DNA from: a virus
Taxonomy: Duplodnaviria; Caudoviricetes
Virus record (IMG/VR): IMGVR_UViG_3300020440_000025
Location: 1 to 46,902 of that record
Length of the DNA: 46,902 bases
Direction: 5' to 3' (one strand)
Part shown: one piece after another, positions 5,265 through 30,080 of the stretch
Position numbering within the stretch: the stretch's first letter is position 1
Layout of the letters: each line of letters begins with the position of its first letter
Position numbers and translations under genes: made by a program
Notes under the pieces: generated by a model
What the model saw: only the letters and a program-made list of their open reading frames with translations
What the model was told of the DNA's origin: nothing
Database searches by the model: none

Positions 5265-5738
5265 TTAATCGTTTTTACCAGAAGCACCAAATGTAACTTT
5301 ACTTTTACGGTCATTAGAAATCGGCATACGAGGATCGTTTTCACGCATTAAGTTATTATCGACAGCTTTCATCTGATTTTCAGTCTGCTGTTCGTAATAA
5401 GCGTTTCGTTCATCTACCGTTTCTTTCGGTATCTTGGCAAGAATCAGACCGCCAACGCCCACAGTTCCAGCGTGTTTTCCTTCTTCAACTGTAGGCAAAT
5501 CGTAGCCTTCAACTTCAGACGGATGCACAGGCTCATAACCTTCCTGAAACCTTTTGTGTACATTGGTCTTGTCATCCTCATTTCTAATATGAGTTCTTAC
5601 CCACCGATAAACCATTCCAGGCGGTGGCTCTGGTGTTTCCAAGGCTTGAGGCGGCTTCCAAGGTTGCCGTGCCGCTTTCGTACTCCTAGAGTTTTGACTT
5701 CTAGGGGCTCTGTTCGATCCAGCTTTCTTTTCTGTCAT
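5265..5738 (-). CDS. Conserved head-module protein
   Basis: 157 aa, WKPPQAL..P.PPPG..YRWVR...GVGGLILAKIP; lies between scaffold and capsid genes. Confidence 0.65.
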   Translation of the reverse strand: MTEKKAGSNRAPRSQNSRSTKAARQPWKPPQALETPEPPPGMVYRWVRTHIRNEDDKTNVHKRFQEGYEPVHPSEVEGYDLPTVEEGKHAGTVGVGGLILAKIPKETVDERNAYYEQQTENQMKAVDNNLMRENDPRMPISNDRKSKVTFGASGKND

Positions 5739-6823
5739 GATGCCTCTAACCTCATTTTTTGTTTTGCGTATTCCTTGAACGGCACACCTAGCTTCTTGGC
5801 TAACGCCTGTTCACTAGGGGTCAGTTCAACCCTACGATCTTTTTGACTGCGTCCATTTCCTGTTGTGCGCGTACCGGAAACTACGGTTTGGACGGGTTTT
5901 CCGCTGTTTCCTGCGTTGCTTGACGCTTGGAACCTGTTTGGAAGTTCTTCGCGTAATTTATTGTCAAGTTGAGAATAGTATTCATCAGACTCTAAGTCAA
6001 TGCCAGTTTGTGCTAAGTCTTGATGTATTGCCATCGCAACATTAGTCATTATCTTATCGACACCAAACCAATCATTCTTTTGCGCCCAGCTTTGTGCTTT
6101 CTGAGATGGTTCTGCGTACTGCGGTTGGGCTGGTGATTGAGAATATTTTGGTTCTTGATAATTTGGAAATTCTTCTCTTACTTTATTTTCTGCTTGATTA
6201 TATGAATCAAGTTCTTGTTCGTACTTCTCAAGATCTCTTTTGTATTGATTTAAAGATCCTCTATCTGCTTCGGCTCTGGCTAACTGTTGTTGAGCTTCAA
6301 CCATTAAATCTTGATTGCCTGACTCGTATGCAGTTTTGAGTGCTACCTTTGCAGCATCAACTTGTGCATCAACCCTGCCTTCAAACTCATTGCTGTAATT
6401 CTTTGATATAGCAAGATTTTCTTTAGCAGTGGTTTGATTGCTTAATTGCATTTGAGTAGAAAGTTTTTTGTTTTCTTCCTGCAATTGTTTAGCAAATTGA
6501 AGTGCTTGAAGTTCTCTGCGTTGAAAGTCTTTAGCCTGCTTAACCGCTTGGTTTATTCGGCCTTGAGCTTTCTTAGCTTCTTTTTCAACTTCAGAAAGTT
6601 CTACATCATCTTCGCCAAGCGCACCTTCTTCAAAGTCATCTTTAACTTTGTCATCTGTGATTGGCGCAACGTCTTTTAAATCATCATCGTCTAAATCAAT
6701 AAAAGTAGAACCTTCTTGAATTTCATCAACTGATTCTCTTTTATGTTCTGGGACTGCTGCTTTTTGAATGTTATCGTCATTCAAGTTAGATAGTGCTTCA
6801 CTTAAAGTTTCTTGCTCTGACAT
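5735..6823 (-). CDS. Putative capsid scaffolding protein
   Basis: 362 aa with an acidic N-terminus, a long coiled coil and a C-terminal LTPSEQALAKKLGVPFKEYAK helix; upstream of MCP. Confidence 0.65.
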   Translation of the reverse strand: MSEQETLSEALSNLNDDNIQKAAVPEHKRESVDEIQEGSTFIDLDDDDLKDVAPITDDKVKDDFEEGALGEDDVELSEVEKEAKKAQGRINQAVKQAKDFQRRELQALQFAKQLQEENKKLSTQMQLSNQTTAKENLAISKNYSNEFEGRVDAQVDAAKVALKTAYESGNQDLMVEAQQQLARAEADRGSLNQYKRDLEKYEQELDSYNQAENKVREEFPNYQEPKYSQSPAQPQYAEPSQKAQSWAQKNDWFGVDKIMTNVAMAIHQDLAQTGIDLESDEYYSQLDNKLREELPNRFQASSNAGNSGKPVQTVVSGTRTTGNGRSQKDRRVELTPSEQALAKKLGVPFKEYAKQKMRLEAS

Positions 6824-6831
6824 AATTTACC

Positions 6832-7272
6832 TCACAACGCTTTAATATCATCAGGATCTAGGATAGTGCCAATCACTTCATCATCATTGATGATTCGTAC
6901 TTCAGCATCATCTTCTAGAGAAAAACGAGCGCCAGCATATCTGCCGATTAGCACCCAGTCGCCTTTCTTGCACCAAGGGACACAAGCAAATTTGCTTTCA
7001 TCCTGATAAGCAAGAGGTCCAACTTTAAGCACATAAGCGACTACAGTAGCTAGGCTTTCACGATCAGTTGTCTGTTTGGTTAACAGAATCCCTGCATCTG
7101 TTTTTCCTTTCCCTTTGTAAGGTAATACAAGTAAACGCCATCCCACAGGGTTTGGCATTCTTTCAATCAGAGATTTATCAAGAACAGTTGGGTCCAAGAT
7201 CTTACTCTCTTCTGGTATGTATGCGTCCGTTAAGGACGGTTTTGCGACAGTATCTGTTGCCAGATCACTCAT
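6832..7272 (-). CDS. groES: Co-chaperonin GroES-like protein
   Basis: PVGWRLLV...KTDAGILL...VLKVGPLAY...KKGDWVLIGRYAG...RIINDDEVIG matches the Cpn10 pattern. ORF track start is 7287; the likely start is 7272. Confidence 0.85.
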   Translation of the reverse strand: MSDLATDTVAKPSLTDAYIPEESKILDPTVLDKSLIERMPNPVGWRLLVLPYKGKGKTDAGILLTKQTTDRESLATVVAYVLKVGPLAYQDESKFACVPWCKKGDWVLIGRYAGARFSLEDDAEVRIINDDEVIGTILDPDDIKAL

Positions 7273-7462
7273 CGAAGTCTCCTTCACTTTGCAGCGCTTT
7301 CTTTAGCTCGTCTTGCAGGGTGCGAAGCGCAGACAATTCACCCATGACGAATCGATAATCCTCCATGTCTTTGATGTTACCGCTTGAGATATAACTTACT
7401 CTGTCTGACTCAAGCTGCTTTATCTTCTCATGTATGTAGTTTGCTAAGTTTACTGAATCCAT
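7265..7462 (-). CDS. Small hypothetical protein (65 aa)
   Basis: Overlaps both neighbours in the head operon. Confidence 0.7.
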   Translation of the reverse strand: MDSVNLANYIHEKIKQLESDRVSYISSGNIKDMEDYRFVMGELSALRTLQDELKKALQSEGDFDE

Positions 7463-8745
7463 TAACTGGCTGTACCGCCTTCATCTTCTTTGCCTACAAC
7501 GTCAGCCATTCCAAAATAATTAGCTGGAGCCATGCCTATGATATTAGAAAGAGATGGATTAGGAGAGCTCATGCCAGCATAAGGCATAGCAGGTGCTTCT
7601 CCGAAATACCCTTTGTATTCAGGGTTTCCATAGTTTCCGCCATAACTCGTTTCTTGTCCGCCATAACCACCATAACCTTTGTTAGGCTGTTCAGGCATAG
7701 GCTGGCCACCTCCCCCTCCAGACATATAACCGGGGAATCCAGATGCTTCTATCGCTTGTCTGTAAGCTCCGCCACTAGTTTCTTGGTTAGGGTCGTATCC
7801 AAGTATTTGTTTTAAAAGAGATTCTATACCTGACCCTGACTCAGCCCCTTCCATCTGACTTAAAGTTTGAAGGGCTCTTTCTATAGTAGGAGTTTCAGTT
7901 TTACCATAATCCGTAGCAACACTACTGCCTGCAGAAATTGGATTGCCTGCTCGATCAAGCATGCCTAATCTATTAGCTACTCTTCGATAGATACCACCGC
8001 CCAACATTCCTCTTTGATCTTCTGTTAGTTGATCAGACTCACCGGATAAAATTTTATCAATAACATCCCTCGCAGCCCCTTCATCAGCAACACCGATTTG
8101 GCTGTAAAGCATTTCAAGGGGGCTCATGGCTTCTCCACCCTCATTCATACGCATGACTTTACCGGGCATTCTAGGCATTGAAGGTCCAACTTGATCGAAC
8201 ATGCCATCAGGATTTATTCCGCCTCCACCACGAGCTACGACATCTTCATAGTTACGTCTGGCATCTTGCAGACGACTTTGATCGAAAGGACTCATAAGTT
8301 TACTAGGATCTATTTTTGATATATCAAAGGGCTCGTATTTATCTGATGTAGGAGAACCAAGATCATCTCTTCTTGGGCCAGTTCCTCTTCCTCTTAACTT
8401 TTCTCTAAGCATATCCATCATTTCTTGAGGAGATCGTTTAGATTCTGGTGGTCTAGTTCTTCGACCTGATCTTCCTTTAAAAATATCTTCAATAGTTTTG
8501 CTTTTGGGAGATGGTCTAGTTGGCATGTCTGGAGTTCTGCCTATTGGTCCTCTTGGTTCAGGAGATCGGCCCCTTAATCTATCAAGAAGGTCAGTAAGAT
8601 CAATTTTATCCCCACCACCCCTTCTTGGCATGTCAGGCATATCTCTTCTGGGCATTGGCCTAGGCATATTTCTTCTGGGCATTGGTCTGGGCATTCTATC
8701 GAACAAATCATCGTAATCCATTGGTGATCCTGGCCTTTGACTCAT
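7462..8745 (-). CDS. Low-complexity Met/Pro/Arg/Gly-rich protein (427 aa)
   Basis: MPRPMPRR repeats and an MNEGG motif; lies between portal and groES. Confidence 0.7.
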   Translation of the reverse strand: MSQRPGSPMDYDDLFDRMPRPMPRRNMPRPMPRRDMPDMPRRGGGDKIDLTDLLDRLRGRSPEPRGPIGRTPDMPTRPSPKSKTIEDIFKGRSGRRTRPPESKRSPQEMMDMLREKLRGRGTGPRRDDLGSPTSDKYEPFDISKIDPSKLMSPFDQSRLQDARRNYEDVVARGGGGINPDGMFDQVGPSMPRMPGKVMRMNEGGEAMSPLEMLYSQIGVADEGAARDVIDKILSGESDQLTEDQRGMLGGGIYRRVANRLGMLDRAGNPISAGSSVATDYGKTETPTIERALQTLSQMEGAESGSGIESLLKQILGYDPNQETSGGAYRQAIEASGFPGYMSGGGGGQPMPEQPNKGYGGYGGQETSYGGNYGNPEYKGYFGEAPAMPYAGMSSPNPSLSNIIGMAPANYFGMADVVGKEDEGGTAS

Positions 8746-8919
8746 TTAATAGACTCCTGAGAACTTAGTGCCTCTCAATGCTGCACCACCGCCCCTAGCT
8801 TTACCTTTTCCCATACCGGGTTTTGAAGACGCATTGGTGGGCTCTTGCTTAATCTTCGCATAGTCCACTCTGCCTTGATCTTTAATAGTGAATCCGTCTT
8901 TCTCTACTTTATTCGTCAT
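8746..8919 (-). CDS. Small basic protein (57 aa)
   Basis: Hand-translated: MTNKVEKDGFTIKDQGRVDYAKIKQEPTNASSKPGMGKGKARGGGAALRGTKFSGVY. It fills the gap between the portal gene and the next ORF. Confidence 0.75.
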   Translation of the reverse strand: MTNKVEKDGFTIKDQGRVDYAKIKQEPTNASSKPGMGKGKARGGGAALRGTKFSGVY

Positions 8920-8921
8920 GA

Positions 8922-11501
8922 TTAGTTCCCGAAAAAGTTTTTAGTCATTTTCTCAGCAAGGTTACCCATCTGTACAGCCTGCTGAAGTTTTAATCTATCT
9001 TGCGCAGTTTGATCTTTCATCTCCGCAATATCAACCTGTATGTCGTTTCTTTCTTCTGAAAGTTCTTTTTGCGTATCAAGACGTTCTTGATCAAGACCAA
9101 ATCTCTTCTCTGCTTCTTCTGCTTTGCGTTCTACGTCAGCGGCTTTGATGTCTAACTCTTCTCGCCTTAAATCAATCAAAGGATCTTCTGGTTGTTTAGG
9201 TTCAAACGCAGGTGATATCTGATCTACTAGCTCTGCGGTAATCTGTGCAACCTTTGTTTCCAGCACTGCCTGCATCTGTTGTTGCATCTGCTGCATCTGA
9301 GGATTAGGTTGCTGTGGTGGCATACCTGGAATTTGTTGTGGCGGCATACCTGGCATACCAGGTGGTCCGGGCATCTGTTGTTGTTGCATCATTTGCATTT
9401 GTTGTTGCATTTGCATGATCTCTGGATCTTGTTGTGCTTGGTTTCTTGCCATCAAATCTATGTGTGCGTAGATATGTGCCATGACCAATCCTTGTATCTG
9501 AGGATTCGTCTGACAGACAGCAGAGTTATAAAATGATAAGTGAATCTGTATGTGCGCCATATGATCTTGATCAGGGAAAGGCGTAGCAGGTTGCATTGCC
9601 ACAAATCCTGCGTTTTCTAATGCGGCAGCTACTGGCTGTGGCTGTGGCGGAGGCGGTGGGGGCGGCAGTATCTGATCTACCTGTTGTATTCCCATCGCTT
9701 CATACATACGCTTATATGCGTTGTATATGCCCATCGGACCATGTATTTCTGGTGCTGCCTGCACCATTCTCAACATTTCCTGCGCCATCATCACACGCTG
9801 ACTCATAGAGAAAATGTTGGGATCACTGACTGGTATGATATCTATCCGGTCATCAAAGTCAGACTGCTTAACGGTCTGATCGCCATTAGCTGTCATATAC
9901 GGATATTGCGGTGGCAGATAATCTCTGAATAAACCTGCTAACAGATTAAATTCTATCCGCTGTGAATAATGCAATCGTTTGTGAATCGCACTCATCACAC
10001 GGCTACCGCGCTCAAGTAAGGCTACGGTTGTACCGACAGGCGCTTCTTGATTACCATCTCCTATCTGCATGTCTCCGATAGAAGCAAAGCGTCTGCCTGC
10101 ATCAACGAGCATGCCTAACAAATTAAGTAATGTAGCACTGGGTTCTTTAAACGGCAGAGGCATCAACGCCTCACGCAATGACCCACCGGGTGCGTCCATG
10201 TCCCTGAACTCACCGGGCTGGATAGGCACATCGTCATCTCGAATACGGATGCCTCTGGCCTTAAAACCTGCAGGTAGGTTGGACAGTGTGCCTGCGTCAA
10301 TCAACTGTCTGAGTATTGAGGTAGCACCTCTAGACAGACCGCCAATCATATGCGTCAAGCCGAATCCGTAGAACCCTACCCCAGGTAAGAACTTGTAATG
10401 AACAAAGTAATCTATTCTCTTACGAAGTGGATCATTCTGGTTGTAGTTTCTGCGAATGGATAAGATCGTAGATTGTTTGGGTAGAAGAGTAACAATGTAA
10501 GGTAGCTTTATTCCTGTCTCAATGCCTTCAGCGTCAACGTCCTCAAAACCGGGGATATCAAGATCAATGTGCATCTCAAGGATCTCACATTCATCAGAAC
10601 CTGAATCACCTGACGGTTTAACGCCCTGTAACTCATCAATCTCTTCGTTCACACCGTCTGCGGTGTAAGACGGACTGGATCGATAAGATATGTCAGACTT
10701 CTTGTAGAATCCTGACAGTTGTAATTTCTTAACGTCATTGATCGACATATCAATAACGTGCGTAATTCTGGTTGCGCTATCTAAACTGGATGCGCCATAA
10801 GGCACGATCATCTTTTCAGACGGAATGAATCGTGATACCGGACGATCTAAGGTTTGGTCAAAGTGAACCTTCCTGAATGCACTGCCTGAAAGGGGCAGAT
10901 AAAAAAGCATTTGGTCAGTCTCAGGGTCATACTCCTTCATCACCTGCGTGATCTGGTAGTTCATGAACTCCTGAACTCGTGCGGCCTGCAGATCGGTGTT
11001 AGGGCTCATCATGCCCACTACCTGCGTCTTGACCGGACCACCAGAAGGCAACATCTCTTTGTATGCCTGTGCTTGGAACTGTGTGACTGACTCTGCGAGT
11101 AACGGATGAATGATACCGGATGCACCCTCAAAAGGTTCAGTTCTCTCCTCAAACTTCATGCCAAGGAACTCAAGCCCTTCTTTGTACTGCTCTTCCCACT
11201 CCTTGCGAGATGACCTATCGTCTTCGTAATCTGACATACAGTCAGAGTAGATCTTGCCTAAGTCGGCATCATCAATAACTTGTGCGAGGTTTTCAAAGAA
11301 GTCTCCGCCTTGCTCCATCATGGGTGCAGGTGGCATGCCTACAAGCATGGTGCCGTCTTCTAATATTTCATTATCGTCATCATCAAAATCCTCAAACATC
11401 TCATCAATGCGAGGCTCTACATCAACTGTAATTTCTTTTGTGTTGTCCTGAATATCAAGATCAGCTTTATCTAGATCGTCAACACCACGTTCAATGGCCA
11501 T
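8922..11501 (-). CDS. Portal protein
   Basis: 859 aa, HPLLAESVTQFQAQAYKE...FVHYKFLPG.GFYGFGL...LIDAGTLSNLPAGFKARG; P22-like portal with a coiled-coil C-terminus; lies between terL and the scaffold. Confidence 0.85.
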   Translation of the reverse strand: MAIERGVDDLDKADLDIQDNTKEITVDVEPRIDEMFEDFDDDDNEILEDGTMLVGMPPAPMMEQGGDFFENLAQVIDDADLGKIYSDCMSDYEDDRSSRKEWEEQYKEGLEFLGMKFEERTEPFEGASGIIHPLLAESVTQFQAQAYKEMLPSGGPVKTQVVGMMSPNTDLQAARVQEFMNYQITQVMKEYDPETDQMLFYLPLSGSAFRKVHFDQTLDRPVSRFIPSEKMIVPYGASSLDSATRITHVIDMSINDVKKLQLSGFYKKSDISYRSSPSYTADGVNEEIDELQGVKPSGDSGSDECEILEMHIDLDIPGFEDVDAEGIETGIKLPYIVTLLPKQSTILSIRRNYNQNDPLRKRIDYFVHYKFLPGVGFYGFGLTHMIGGLSRGATSILRQLIDAGTLSNLPAGFKARGIRIRDDDVPIQPGEFRDMDAPGGSLREALMPLPFKEPSATLLNLLGMLVDAGRRFASIGDMQIGDGNQEAPVGTTVALLERGSRVMSAIHKRLHYSQRIEFNLLAGLFRDYLPPQYPYMTANGDQTVKQSDFDDRIDIIPVSDPNIFSMSQRVMMAQEMLRMVQAAPEIHGPMGIYNAYKRMYEAMGIQQVDQILPPPPPPPQPQPVAAALENAGFVAMQPATPFPDQDHMAHIQIHLSFYNSAVCQTNPQIQGLVMAHIYAHIDLMARNQAQQDPEIMQMQQQMQMMQQQQMPGPPGMPGMPPQQIPGMPPQQPNPQMQQMQQQMQAVLETKVAQITAELVDQISPAFEPKQPEDPLIDLRREELDIKAADVERKAEEAEKRFGLDQERLDTQKELSEERNDIQVDIAEMKDQTAQDRLKLQQAVQMGNLAEKMTKNFFGN

Positions 11502-20787: not shown

Positions 20788-21055
20788 ATTCAAATCAGGA
20801 AGGGGCGGACTACGGTCCAACTCTTCCGCCTTGAGCTCGTACAAGAAACCATCTGATCAGGTGTGTGACTGGTGCAGCAAAGAGTTTATATCTGTGAACA
20901 AGAGACATCGATCAGGTCGCAGGTTCTGTGGTCAATCGTGCAAGATGAAGCAATACAACTTCGCAAGGCACATGAAGTACAGGGCTCACCTCACAGAGAA
21001 AAACCGCAAGGGCTCTTGGTTCAAAGATCCCTTACACAGGTTGAGGGGTCTATGA
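20780..21055 (+). CDS. Small basic zinc-finger protein
   Basis: CDWC...RRFCGQSC; AGGAGG RBS; converges on terS. Confidence 0.7.
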   Translation: MPEFKSGRGGLRSNSSALSSYKKPSDQVCDWCSKEFISVNKRHRSGRRFCGQSCKMKQYNFARHMKYRAHLTEKNRKGSWFKDPLHRLRGL

Positions 21056-21703
21056 TCCCTCTTCCTCATCCTCTCTCCCATCGTTCCACTCATCGTAGTT
21101 GGCATCTTCAAGACCATCATCTTCCTCCACCTCTTCAAAGTCCGCATCCATTACCTCCCCTTCATCGTCCAAGTCTGCAGGCTCTATGTCTTCCTGCTTG
21201 GAATCAAAGTCGAGCCCATGCTTTTCAATCAAGCTACGAAGCCTAGACTCAACCTCACCTCGATCCATCTGATCAATCTTCCCTGTCTTGATCTCCTTCT
21301 TATCCACCATCAAGCCTGCAAGCTTGGCCCTGCCCATCTCCGCCTGTACTGCTGCACTGTAAGAACCATCTTCGACTGCCGCATCTCTGATCATCTGAAG
21401 ATCCCTGGCTACCTTCTCATAGGTGATCTCATACTTTCTCTGCTTTGCCTCAGTCAAGTCCGCAATCCGGTGTTGCACATGCGCATAGATCGGACTGTTT
21501 AAAAGATGACTCGCACTCACACTCGCATTCTTATACCCAGCCCTGAGCGCACACTCTTTCTTAGTCAGATCATGGAACACATACAACTGACAGAACTTCT
21601 CCTGTTTCTGCGTAATCTTTGTTCGCTTGATTCCCTTTGTCCGATACTTATCAGGACTGAGTAAAATGTTTGATGAACCTTCGTTAACTAATGACTCTGA
21701 CAT
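21050..21703 (-). CDS. terS: Terminase small subunit
   Basis: N-terminal HTH ITQKQEKFCQLYV...KECALRAGYK..SVSASHLL, then helical SAAVQAEMGRAKLAGL and an acidic tail. Confidence 0.8.
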   Translation of the reverse strand: MSESLVNEGSSNILLSPDKYRTKGIKRTKITQKQEKFCQLYVFHDLTKKECALRAGYKNASVSASHLLNSPIYAHVQHRIADLTEAKQRKYEITYEKVARDLQMIRDAAVEDGSYSAAVQAEMGRAKLAGLMVDKKEIKTGKIDQMDRGEVESRLRSLIEKHGLDFDSKQEDIEPADLDDEGEVMDADFEEVEEDDGLEDANYDEWNDGREDEEEGS

Positions 21704-21795: not shown

Positions 21796-21976
21796 TGACC
21801 CTACTGACCCTTGACCCACCCTTATAAATCAATGACTTACCTAGTAGGGTCACATGGGTCAACATGGGTCAGCACTGACCCTACTGACCCTACCCATTTT
21901 TCCTATACAAATCATACACTTAACCTTTTTTCAGAGGGGGTAGGGTCAGTCAGAAAAAATCCAATATTGACCCTAC
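21796..21976. repeat. TGACCC(TAC) iteron-like cluster with IHF consensus site (candidate origin or pac region)
   Basis: TGACCC at 21796, 21805, 21812, 21876, 21885 and 21968; inverted GGGTCA at 21847, 21856, 21866 and 21943. AATCAATGACTTA (WATCAANNNNTTR) at 21827-21839. Confidence 0.75.
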
Positions 21977-23518: not shown

Positions 23519-24367
23519 TTAATCACCGCAAAAGCACGGTATGGTTTCATCGTCATAACCAAACAAACTACCTTGGTCAGTTGCTATCATTTTCATATCT
23601 GCATAAGACGGCTGATCACTTCTGAATGTCCCTGCCTTCTGGCCTTTTCCCACCTTAGTCTCCATCTCTGACCACCAGTCAACCAAGTCAGGCCGTGCCT
23701 GGACGATAGATAGTTTTTTATTAAACCCTTTGAGGAAACACAGATCACAATTGCCCCAGTCAGTCACACCATTGTTGTTAGGCAGTTCAAGATCAAAGTT
23801 TTGCTCAGTCCAGAACTCGTACACCTCTTTGACGTACACGTTATCGTCCACCAAGGGCAGTATGTTTCTTGGTTCCTTTCTCAACTTGGCTGCTCTTCTC
23901 TGCTCATCAGCCCTGATACCAATGATATTCGCCCATTCGGTATCACCAAACTTATTCTTCATCCAGTCTCTGATTCGATATACCTTGAGCTCTTGTGTGC
24001 AGAATCTAGCGACCGGGTTAGGCAGGTATTGCCTAGCAACGATGAGAGATTCAAAAGGCTCACCGTTCCTGCTTGCAGATTCGTAGTCCACCTCTTTGGT
24101 TTCATACACATATTTGTTTTCGTCCTCTCCGCCAGGTCGAGCAAGACACTCCAGCCAAGTGATATCCACACCCCAATGAACAGAACATGCTTGAACAAAG
24201 TCCAGTGTCTGCGTCATCTCTTTTCCTGTGTTCGCAAAGGTAACTGGTAGATAGTCAGGCAACTGTCCGTCATGGGCATCAAGGATCTTCCACAGCATGT
24301 AACCAGAAGTTCGACCACCGCTAAACGATATGGCTGCAGGCTCTGTAATTTTATATGGATTTCTCAA
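23519..24367 (-). CDS. PAPS-reductase-family (PP-loop) Fe-S protein
   Basis: SFSGGRTS PP-loop, FANTGKE, RFCTQELK, IGIRADE..R, GNCDLCFLK and C-terminal PCFCGD. Confidence 0.85.
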   Translation of the reverse strand: MRNPYKITEPAAISFSGGRTSGYMLWKILDAHDGQLPDYLPVTFANTGKEMTQTLDFVQACSVHWGVDITWLECLARPGGEDENKYVYETKEVDYESASRNGEPFESLIVARQYLPNPVARFCTQELKVYRIRDWMKNKFGDTEWANIIGIRADEQRRAAKLRKEPRNILPLVDDNVYVKEVYEFWTEQNFDLELPNNNGVTDWGNCDLCFLKGFNKKLSIVQARPDLVDWWSEMETKVGKGQKAGTFRSDQPSYADMKMIATDQGSLFGYDDETIPCFCGD

Positions 24368-28542: not shown

Positions 28543-28543
28543 T

Positions 28544-28646
28544 CTAGTGGGGGGGATCACCTTCAGGCGAGTGGCCGCGTCTGTGAGCGGTGTACGCTCC
28601 CCCTCTAGTTTTTCATGGATAGCGTATATCGCATCGGCCACACTCG
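28544..28646 (+). promoter_or_regulatory. Structured leader RNA upstream of the RAMP-like gene
   Basis: Nested stems 28568-28577/28635-28646 and 28587-28598/28621-28632. Loop segment 28599-28608 can pair with 28544-28553. Confidence 0.5.
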
Positions 28647-28662
28647 ATTGGAGAAAATAGAA

Positions 28663-29316
28663 ATGAGTGAACTAACTCAAGCACAAATAAAAATTACACC
28701 TTTTAAAATTAGTAGGTTTCAAATAGCCATCAAAGGATTGAGTCCACTGGTCATGCATGCGTGGTCAGAGAAGGCAAAGCGCATGGTAAGAATGACTCCG
28801 ACAGAACGGAAGAAGTTACCAAAAGAAGAGCGGACACCGGAAGAGACAGCACACGAGTGCGCCTACCGATGTGATGATGAAAGCTTCGGCCTTCCCATTG
28901 ATGCCTTCAAGAAAGCTGTGACATCAGCAGCACACACCGATGATGGCGTGGCAAAGACTGTAATCAGGAAGGCTTTGTTTGTTCTTCCGCATGACAAGTC
29001 TGGCAACGTACCTCTTGTTTATGACTCAGAACCAATTGTCACTGAAGACAAGGTGACGGTAGGTCGAGGGGCAACTGACCTTCGGTATCGACTTTACTTC
29101 CATGACTGGTCAGCAGTCTTCACCATCGACATTGACACCACTCAGCTAAATGTTCAGGACGTTGTGACGCTTGTTCAGAGAGCAGGATACGGTGTTGGTA
29201 TTGGTGACTGGAGGCCACAAAGGGACGGAGACAAAGGTCGTTTTGAAGTTGATACCACTCAAGGCATCAAACAACTTGACATGATCACTAACGAGATCGT
29301 TGGAGAGGTGGTGTGA
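28663..29316 (+). CDS. Stand-alone RAMP / Cas7-like RNA-binding protein
   Basis: 217 aa from ATG 28663 (TTGGAG RBS). RAMP-like motif order: IAIKGLSPLVMH, FGLPIDAFKKAV, RYRLYFHDWSAVFTI, then Gly-rich loop AGYGVGIGDWRPQRDGDKGRFEV. Confidence 0.7.
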   Translation: MSELTQAQIKITPFKISRFQIAIKGLSPLVMHAWSEKAKRMVRMTPTERKKLPKEERTPEETAHECAYRCDDESFGLPIDAFKKAVTSAAHTDDGVAKTVIRKALFVLPHDKSGNVPLVYDSEPIVTEDKVTVGRGATDLRYRLYFHDWSAVFTIDIDTTQLNVQDVVTLVQRAGYGVGIGDWRPQRDGDKGRFEVDTTQGIKQLDMITNEIVGEVV

Positions 29317-29792
29317 TGGAGAAAGCAAGTTGGAGAAAGGGTGCTAGGTTTACAAAGATAGATCCTGATCTAGCCTATGCTGAGATGGAATCCATCAGAG
29401 AAGAAGAGGGTCAGCTAACCGCTGACCTGCTTCTTGAAAAAGCGAGGGATGGTTCTAACGTCCTTCACTCTGCATTTGAATGGAACGATTCAAAAGCAGG
29501 GCATATGTATCGTAAGCAACAAGCGATGCAGATGATCAAGTCTATTGAGATTGTCGTAGAGGAGCTACCTCAAGAAGAAAAAACCATCAAGTATTGGCAC
29601 ATCGTTAAGGGAGAAGAAGAGCCTTCTGTTAAATCCTATGTTCCAAAAGAAGAGGCTCTGGCAGATCCAGAAGCGAGAGCAAAGATGGTTCTTAATGCAT
29701 ACAAGGAACTTAGAAACTTTAGGAAGAAGTACAAAGAACTGCATGAGTTAAATGCATTTCACGATCTTATTGATTCTTTAGTTCCAGATTAA
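29313..29792 (+). CDS. Partner protein of the RAMP-like gene (159 aa, helical)
   Basis: GTGATG overlap with the RAMP-like gene; LTADLLLEKAR...LHSAFEWNDSKAGHMYRKQQA; ends 3 nt before the pentamer array. Confidence 0.8.
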   Translation: MMEKASWRKGARFTKIDPDLAYAEMESIREEEGQLTADLLLEKARDGSNVLHSAFEWNDSKAGHMYRKQQAMQMIKSIEIVVEELPQEEKTIKYWHIVKGEEEPSVKSYVPKEEALADPEARAKMVLNAYKELRNFRKKYKELHELNAFHDLIDSLVPD

Positions 29793-29795
29793 CCT

Positions 29796-30080
29796 GGCAG
29801 GCAAGGCATGTCGGAGTGCGGTAGTGCGCGGTAGGGTGCGGTTCGGATAGGCAGGGCAGTGGGGGCAAGGCACGGAGCGGTATGGTCGGGAGTGGTATGG
29901 CGAGGTTTGGTTAGGCAGGCATGTCGGGGAATGTCGGGGTGGGGTGCTGTGGGGTGCGGTTTGGCTAGGTATGGCAGGCGCGGCGAGTCGTGGATAGTTC
30001 TGGTACGTTGCGGTGAGGTGAGGTATGGCAGGCTAGGCTAGGAGAGGTCGGGTGAGGTTAGGTGAGGTTAGGCATGGTTA
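29796..30080 (+). repeat. GGY-NN pentamer array, 5 units (candidate guide-RNA array)
   Basis: 285 nt = 5 x GGCA (29796, 29855, 29914, 29973, 30027) + 53 pentamers (11, 11, 11, 10, 10). 43 of 53 start with GG and 37 with GGY; the last two bases vary. Confidence 0.9.

Follow-up and report, generated by a model that had tools for sequence, protein, structure and literature searches.

The array at 29796-30080 of the DNA analysed here is the staggered vrRNA array of a VIPR locus carried by a marine phage, and it very probably encodes five back-to-back VIPR guides, predicted to direct the protein Vipr onto the DNA of competing mobile elements and silence it. VIPR is a CRISPR-related system known from 2026 preprints and built from 9-16 pentamer repeats, each with a conserved GGY and a hypervariable NN dinucleotide (10.64898/2026.04.26.720920); staggered vrRNA arrays, in which the units are offset by a one-base overlap, are presented in the same work (fig. 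S18; also PMC13142463). The find itself is thus not new, since VIPR and its staggered layout have both been published, and the locus differs from the published staggered VIPRs in being a new marine phage locus with guides of its own. It shares with VIPR a phage-borne vipr gene, an accessory gene and a flanking non-coding GGY/NN array without a CRISPR array, and its units of 10-11 pentamers lie inside the 9-16 range. The word GGCA, which opens every unit of the array, is absent from the supplement text of 10.64898/2026.04.26.720920, where the image of fig. S18 may nevertheless show it, and from the accessible parts of the texts of 10.64898/2026.10.15.759431 and 10.64898/2026.10.21.760802; in the portions of the VIPR preprints that could be searched, the term "staggered" occurs only in the first of these.

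Genome setting and structure of the array

The window, that is, the whole stretch of 46,902 nt analysed, is that of a tailed phage with terminase, portal and major head genes assigned by PHROGs, and its record is classed as a virus. Its large terminase is 58-60% identical to the counterparts in 023Pt_psg01, HTVC027P, HTVC023P and DSL-LC04. At least half of the words of the locus were present in 14 sequencing runs from 8 studies, one of which may be the source of the record, and 12 of the runs are labelled marine metagenome. The array is located inside a replication and recombination block, with genes for a Sak4-like ATPase, an SSB-like protein, a helicase and a Cas4-domain exonuclease as neighbours, among which no CRISPR array, cas1 or cas operon was found. 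Elsewhere in the window, a PAPS-reductase-family gene (23519-24367, minus strand) adjoins the primase, and ten GGGTCA hexamers (four on the plus and six on the minus strand) are clustered at 21796-21973, within a non-coding stretch of roughly 180 bp on the upstream side of the small terminase gene (21050-21703); the cluster looks like the iteron set of an origin or a packaging site.

An independent parse resolved the array into five head-to-tail units without leftover bases, all on the plus strand and all opened by GGCA. Units 1 (29796-29854), 2 (29855-29913) and 3 (29914-29972) measure 59 nt each and carry 11 pentamers after the opening word, while units 4 (29973-30026) and 5 (30027-30080) measure 54 nt and carry 10, giving 53 pentamers overall. 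Each unit is a predicted vrRNA guide. Precisely this division, with the same lengths and no remainder, had been put forward in the original prediction, and the phase-parse score behind it, 92.5, is far above that of 1000 dinucleotide-preserving shuffles (mean 8.3, maximum 18.7). The autocorrelation and pentamer entropy that the prediction proposed as its check bear it out, revealing a 5-nt period with a slip, and variability that rises towards positions 4 and 5 of the pentamer. Autocorrelation peaks occur at lags 5 and 10 (z 8.0 and 9.0) and again at lags 49, 54, 59 and 64 (z 7-10), the latter set indicating a one-base phase slip, and the entropies of pentamer positions 1-5 are 0.37, 0.56, 1.48, 1.76 and 1.97 bits, respectively. 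At each of the four internal 4-nt breaks GGCA is followed by G, which makes a one-base overlap with no spacer; the break between units 1 and 2 could be moved one pentamer earlier, because two GGCA words stand side by side there. Runs of at least three strict GGY pentamers exist in the array and nowhere else in the window. The scaffold is nevertheless degenerate, with a strict GGY start in 37 of the 53 pentamers and a non-GGY start in the other 16, and the units share 5′ or 3′ halves in a chimera-like manner. Tandem Repeats Finder picked up the array as short pieces only and detected no long direct repeats in the region.

Neither a tail nor a ribozyme could be recognised in the units, because none folds better than its shuffles (z -0.57 to 1.51) and a search of Rfam with them gave no match at E up to 1. 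The units adjoin directly, so that no structured 3′ tail follows any of them, and with zero bases between them there are no intervening hammerhead ribozymes. Directly 3′ of unit 5 lie AT-rich sequence and the ribosome site of the next gene, and no terminator was predicted where the array ends. Sigma-70 promoters show no excess (5 found against 5.1 expected). RNA libraries from four runs yielded short contigs, which carry no information on ends, strand or level; the array is covered mainly in one run, and one contig covers parts of three units.

Vipr, its accessory gene and the turnover of units

While the earlier reading of the array holds, it missed the protein partner encoded upstream, Vipr with its accessory gene, which explains the array. 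The vipr gene (28663-29316, plus strand) encodes a 217-aa RAMP-fold protein with a thumb and a glycine-rich loop. In a phmmer search of the PDB with this protein, the sole match at E up to 10 was the Vipr of SUSP1 (36pp, E 3e-7), and a profile built from 49 of 77 homologues matched the same entry with E 2.2e-11 over positions 18-196, the next entry standing at 0.037. Alignment of the two proteins with hhalign gave a probability of 97.8%, the matched C-terminal part being 36% identical. The structure model (pLDDT 90) has as its best fold match a Csm3/Cas7 RAMP (Z 11.9, rmsd 4.2, 162 aligned residues, 12% identity) in a list made up of representatives only, to which SUSP1 Vipr does not belong. 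Csm3 and Cas7, class 1 CRISPR RAMPs of the same fold, oligomerise on a guide RNA. Residues H32, R143, D182, W183 and R184 align with H17, R138, D177, W178 and R179 of SUSP1 Vipr, which hold the GGY bases according to the accessible part of 10.64898/2026.04.26.720927. Counting against a VIPR reading, K82 and K33 of SUSP1, both required for silencing, face H91 and P46 rather than a lysine, in a region where the alignment is uncertain. Taken together, the 217-aa protein is a member of the Vipr family, a RAMP homologue that stands alone and has both the thumb and the G-loop. The gene is preceded by a 120-nt leader (28543-28662) with a G run, a complementary C run and then a T run, which could be a terminator or a regulatory leader (folding z -1.36, not significant).

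The accessory gene (29316-29792, plus strand) occupies the vap position and encodes 158 aa. Its start overlaps the vipr stop, giving a two-gene operon, and the array starts 3 nt after its own stop. The product belongs to phrog_15946, of unknown function; it has no match in Pfam, NCBIfam or the PDB, its neighbours in the Atlas are unnamed viral clusters, and a profile comparison against the single sequence of SUSP1 Vap1 found no detectable likeness (probability 0.1%).

For a broader view, the best 80 of 528 Vipr relatives in IMG/VR were taken, which left 77 distant loci once the close relatives had been set aside; near-duplicates are included, so these loci are not independent of each other. 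Within this sample a pentamer array is present in 74 of the 77 loci, in 73 of them on the vipr strand, an accessory-gene homologue was detected by tblastn in 56 (two copies in one locus), and 65 have at least two GGCA breaks. GGCA accounts for 619 of the 926 phase breaks in a parse that gave no bonus for that word, and the 361 unique contexts have G after it in 99%, a figure partly forced by the parse. Among 367 unique GGCA-bounded internal units the mode is 9-11 pentamers, and the mid-unit NN entropy reaches 3.97 of 4 bits. The conserved register and the role of GGCA as a boundary, both anticipated from the single array, therefore recur in distant relatives; the comparison of related phages supported conserved phase and did not support fixed unit length, units having mostly 7-13 pentamers.

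Variations on this layout were also met among the relatives. GTCA takes the place of GGCA at the phase breaks of L036, L037 and L044, and CGCA often does so in L050. Locus L034 has an array of about 4 kb (5676-9649) between vipr and the accessory gene, with 818 parsed words and more than 100 phase breaks, while in L011 (4849-7507) the accessory gene is duplicated and arrays surround both copies. In the Gordonia phage UmaThurman (NC_031249.1), the DNA annotated as gp40, a hypothetical protein, forms a pentamer array with GGCA stagger that follows a Vipr homologue (L294, about 2130-2460). Such a homologue occurs in 34 records, mostly of Mycobacterium and Gordonia phages, which offer culturable test cases.

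Among near-identical phages, whole units behave as cassettes that are gained, lost or placed in another order. Besides two records (L002 and L005) whose array equals that of the window and which may be the same genome, L001, with a Vipr 100% identical, keeps units 1, 2, 4 and 5, unit 4 being identical, while unit 3 is replaced there by about 127 nt of other units. In L003, whose Vipr is 97% identical over residues 51-218, units 2, 3 and 4 are kept, the last with one additional pentamer, and there are two new units, one of them in place of unit 1; units 1 and 5 are missing. Units 2 and 4 accordingly persist in all three array versions found in IMG/VR, and one long unit precedes unit 4 in L001 but follows it in L003. 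In three of four further DNA runs, contigs contained inserted letters at the junctions with short flanking duplications, one of these inserts matching that of L001. This pattern fits recombination between units, as the presumed mechanism, rather than polar addition. Substitutions within the shared units comprised 5 distinct changes in the scaffold and 3 in NN, which is uninformative because it lies near the expected ratio of about 4.8 to 3.2.

Target searches and the reading code

In SUSP1, each NN pair reads two bases of DNA and the next base, mostly a wobble position, is skipped; binding represses transcription (10.64898/2026.04.26.720920). Scans for targets of the window guides relied on one-skip patterns in which a seed of 16-22 bases had to match exactly, a requirement that makes the absence of targets weak evidence. 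Among the IMG/VR scans, 9 NN of unit 4 gave no locus, as did a scan of the same type with the long unit of L001 and L003. Hits rejected as chance were obtained with 8 NN of unit 2 (30 loci, the best at 20/22 in 3), unit 1 (11 loci, best 19/22), unit 3 (19 loci, best 19/22) and unit 5 (5 loci, best 18/20). Metagenomes held no match to unit 2 at full length; 8 NN of unit 4 gave 121 loci from 13 of 64 parts, of which the best, 3 loci scoring 21/22 against the L003 form, are close to chance level, fall in one gene family of 66-67% GC and were rejected. With 10 NN of unit 2, 24 GTDB genomes were found, nearly all of the Rhizobium group and in one gene family (21/22, 60% GC), which was likewise rejected because a collection of 596 Gb should contain about one such family by chance.

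In three large phage records (L083, L101 and L111; about 2990-3030 in L101), the 20/22 match of unit 2 covers the start of a 346-aa gene in antisense orientation, with the skips at wobble positions. From motif and gene order, this gene is presumably a T4-like gp47. With up to 3 mismatches allowed, these records contain no match to units 1, 3, 4 and 5 (0/5, 0/5, 0/3 and 0/5), and unit 2 searched against 50 whole records gave only the 2 matches already known. With a chance of about 1 in 5 among some six seed families, the match is a lead only. As targets, the 77 distant Vipr loci drawn from the best 80 of 528 relatives reached no more than 16/22 and 16/20 at one skip, and other skips did as well. 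In the phage's own genome with the array masked, the best values were 15-16 of 20-22 under every skip rule, with no self match at 80%, as is also reported for known VIPRs (10.64898/2026.04.26.720920). In sum, no credible target was found in the collections and local searches for any of the five window guides.

A computational case for the code came from one relative. When 274 guides of the clade were compared with about 0.7 Mb on both strands, there was no general excess of one-skip matches: a level of at least 85% was reached by 6 guides, versus 5, 4 and 2 for the other skips. One guide of L060, however, whose staggered, proviral array lies at 6162-6429, matches a methyltransferase gene of L043 (8966-10315) at 19/20 with one skip, and the 95% match level was reached by 0 of 5480 shuffled guides. 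We take the match site to be the DPPY motif of that gene. The other two long L060 guides have their best match in the same L043 gene (17/22 and 18/24, against 12/22 and 14/24 antisense), all three guides reading it in codon frame, while a six-pentamer piece of L060 did not fit it. The L043 gene is probably a homologue of the true L060 target. These matches suggest that the L060 VIPR targets DNA methyltransferase genes in rival phages, and that the one-base-skip code holds in the GGCA clade and uses every NN from one GGCA word to the next, on the strength of one locus pair found post hoc.

Proposed guide function, maturation and renewal

The closest characterised relative is the type II VIPR of SUSP1 (36pp; 10.64898/2026.04.26.720927, 10.64898/2026.10.15.759431), which, in the parts of these sources available, shares with the window a Vipr with the five GGY-binding residues, a two-gene operon with the array downstream, and a comparable guide size of 10-12 repeats. 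SUSP1 guides, however, are about 100 nt long, separately spaced and provided with a 3′ pseudoknot tail, whereas the window units adjoin and have none; since this is the only biochemically tested type, the missing tail counts against the assignment. The window array also differs from VIPR ribozyme arrays (examples in types I and V), which place hammerhead ribozymes between vrRNAs, and from class 1 CRISPR-Cas, which has a repeat-spacer array and a multi-gene cas operon. The locus has neither of the latter two, and its specificity is predicted to reside in non-contiguous dinucleotides.

In the preferred reading, the array would be co-transcribed with vipr and the accessory gene. One Vipr subunit would then bind each GGY and leave the NN pair exposed, as the SUSP1 structures and the conserved residues suggest. 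At GGCA(G) the one-base slip breaks the register and would end the filament, and the transcript may be cut or trimmed there to give units of some 55-60 nt, each sharing one base with the next. The NN pairs would read DNA two bases at a time with one skipped, often a wobble position, and, by analogy with SUSP1, the bound complex would block transcription of a competing phage or satellite. The observed gain, loss and reordering of whole units would renew the guides, probably through recombination at the shared GGCA-GGC junctions. Some units may be weak or decayed, because strict GGY is confined to 37 of 53 pentamers, and substitutions to AGY and GGA are among the tested GGY perturbations that abolish silencing in SUSP1 (10.64898/2026.04.26.720920).

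Other readings of the locus concern what becomes of the RNA and what it acts on. It is rather unlikely that the array acts as one long RNA, uncut or cut by a host nuclease, in which GGCA only ends the filament and separates targeting segments. Such a reading would suit units that have no ribozyme, tail or stable fold, and also the RNA-library contig spanning parts of three units, although contigs cannot reveal RNA ends. RAMP relatives such as Cas6 cleave guide arrays, which speaks for processing. While sRNA-seq confirmation is named in the text of 10.64898/2026.04.26.720920 only for the ribozyme and single-vrRNA layouts, the legend of fig. S18 mentions individual processed vrRNAs. We give about the same low weight to guides that are partly dead, serve as decoys or act on host genes instead of rival viruses. 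The lack of a viral target, the 16 of 53 non-GGY scaffolds and the chimera-like halves of the units would agree with this, and vrRNAs that serve as decoys or are aimed at the host occur in SUSP1 satellites according to the accessible part of 10.64898/2026.10.15.759431. The persistence of units 2 and 4 in every array version argues the other way, and the failure to find targets says little when the scans of viral, metagenome and GTDB collections demanded exact seeds and one covered 13 of 64 parts.

It is highly improbable that the region is a neutral G-rich microsatellite or encodes a short protein. A 60-codon frame does run through 29859-30041, and one reverse frame in L003 has no stop, but every frame of the window array contains 2-6 stops, the 59-nt units shift the frame and the relatives have no frame in common. 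Coding, which the original prediction had named as its possible refutation, is excluded by the stops in each frame and the frame-shifting unit changes, and no reading frame is kept by the array. Its contention that the array is no microsatellite and that NN carries information is backed by the exchange of whole units between near-identical phages and by the near-maximal NN entropy in relatives, to which the tight linkage to Vipr adds a further argument against a slippage origin.

Five adjoining VIPR guides therefore remain the preferred reading, and the window locus is a compact test case for two matters, namely how separate guides are cut from an array without tails and how a VIPR replaces its guides with new ones. 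Both are directly testable, because near-identical strains carry different unit sets. We tentatively propose, as a possibility rather than an expectation, that the GGCA(G) slip of staggered VIPRs without tails serves both as the maturation site, cut by Vipr or by the accessory family, and as a recombination handle through which guides are swapped, reordered and spliced in wild phage populations. If this were true, it would amount to a Cas1-free renewal of RNA-guided immune memory, visible as strain-level turnover in one marine phage.
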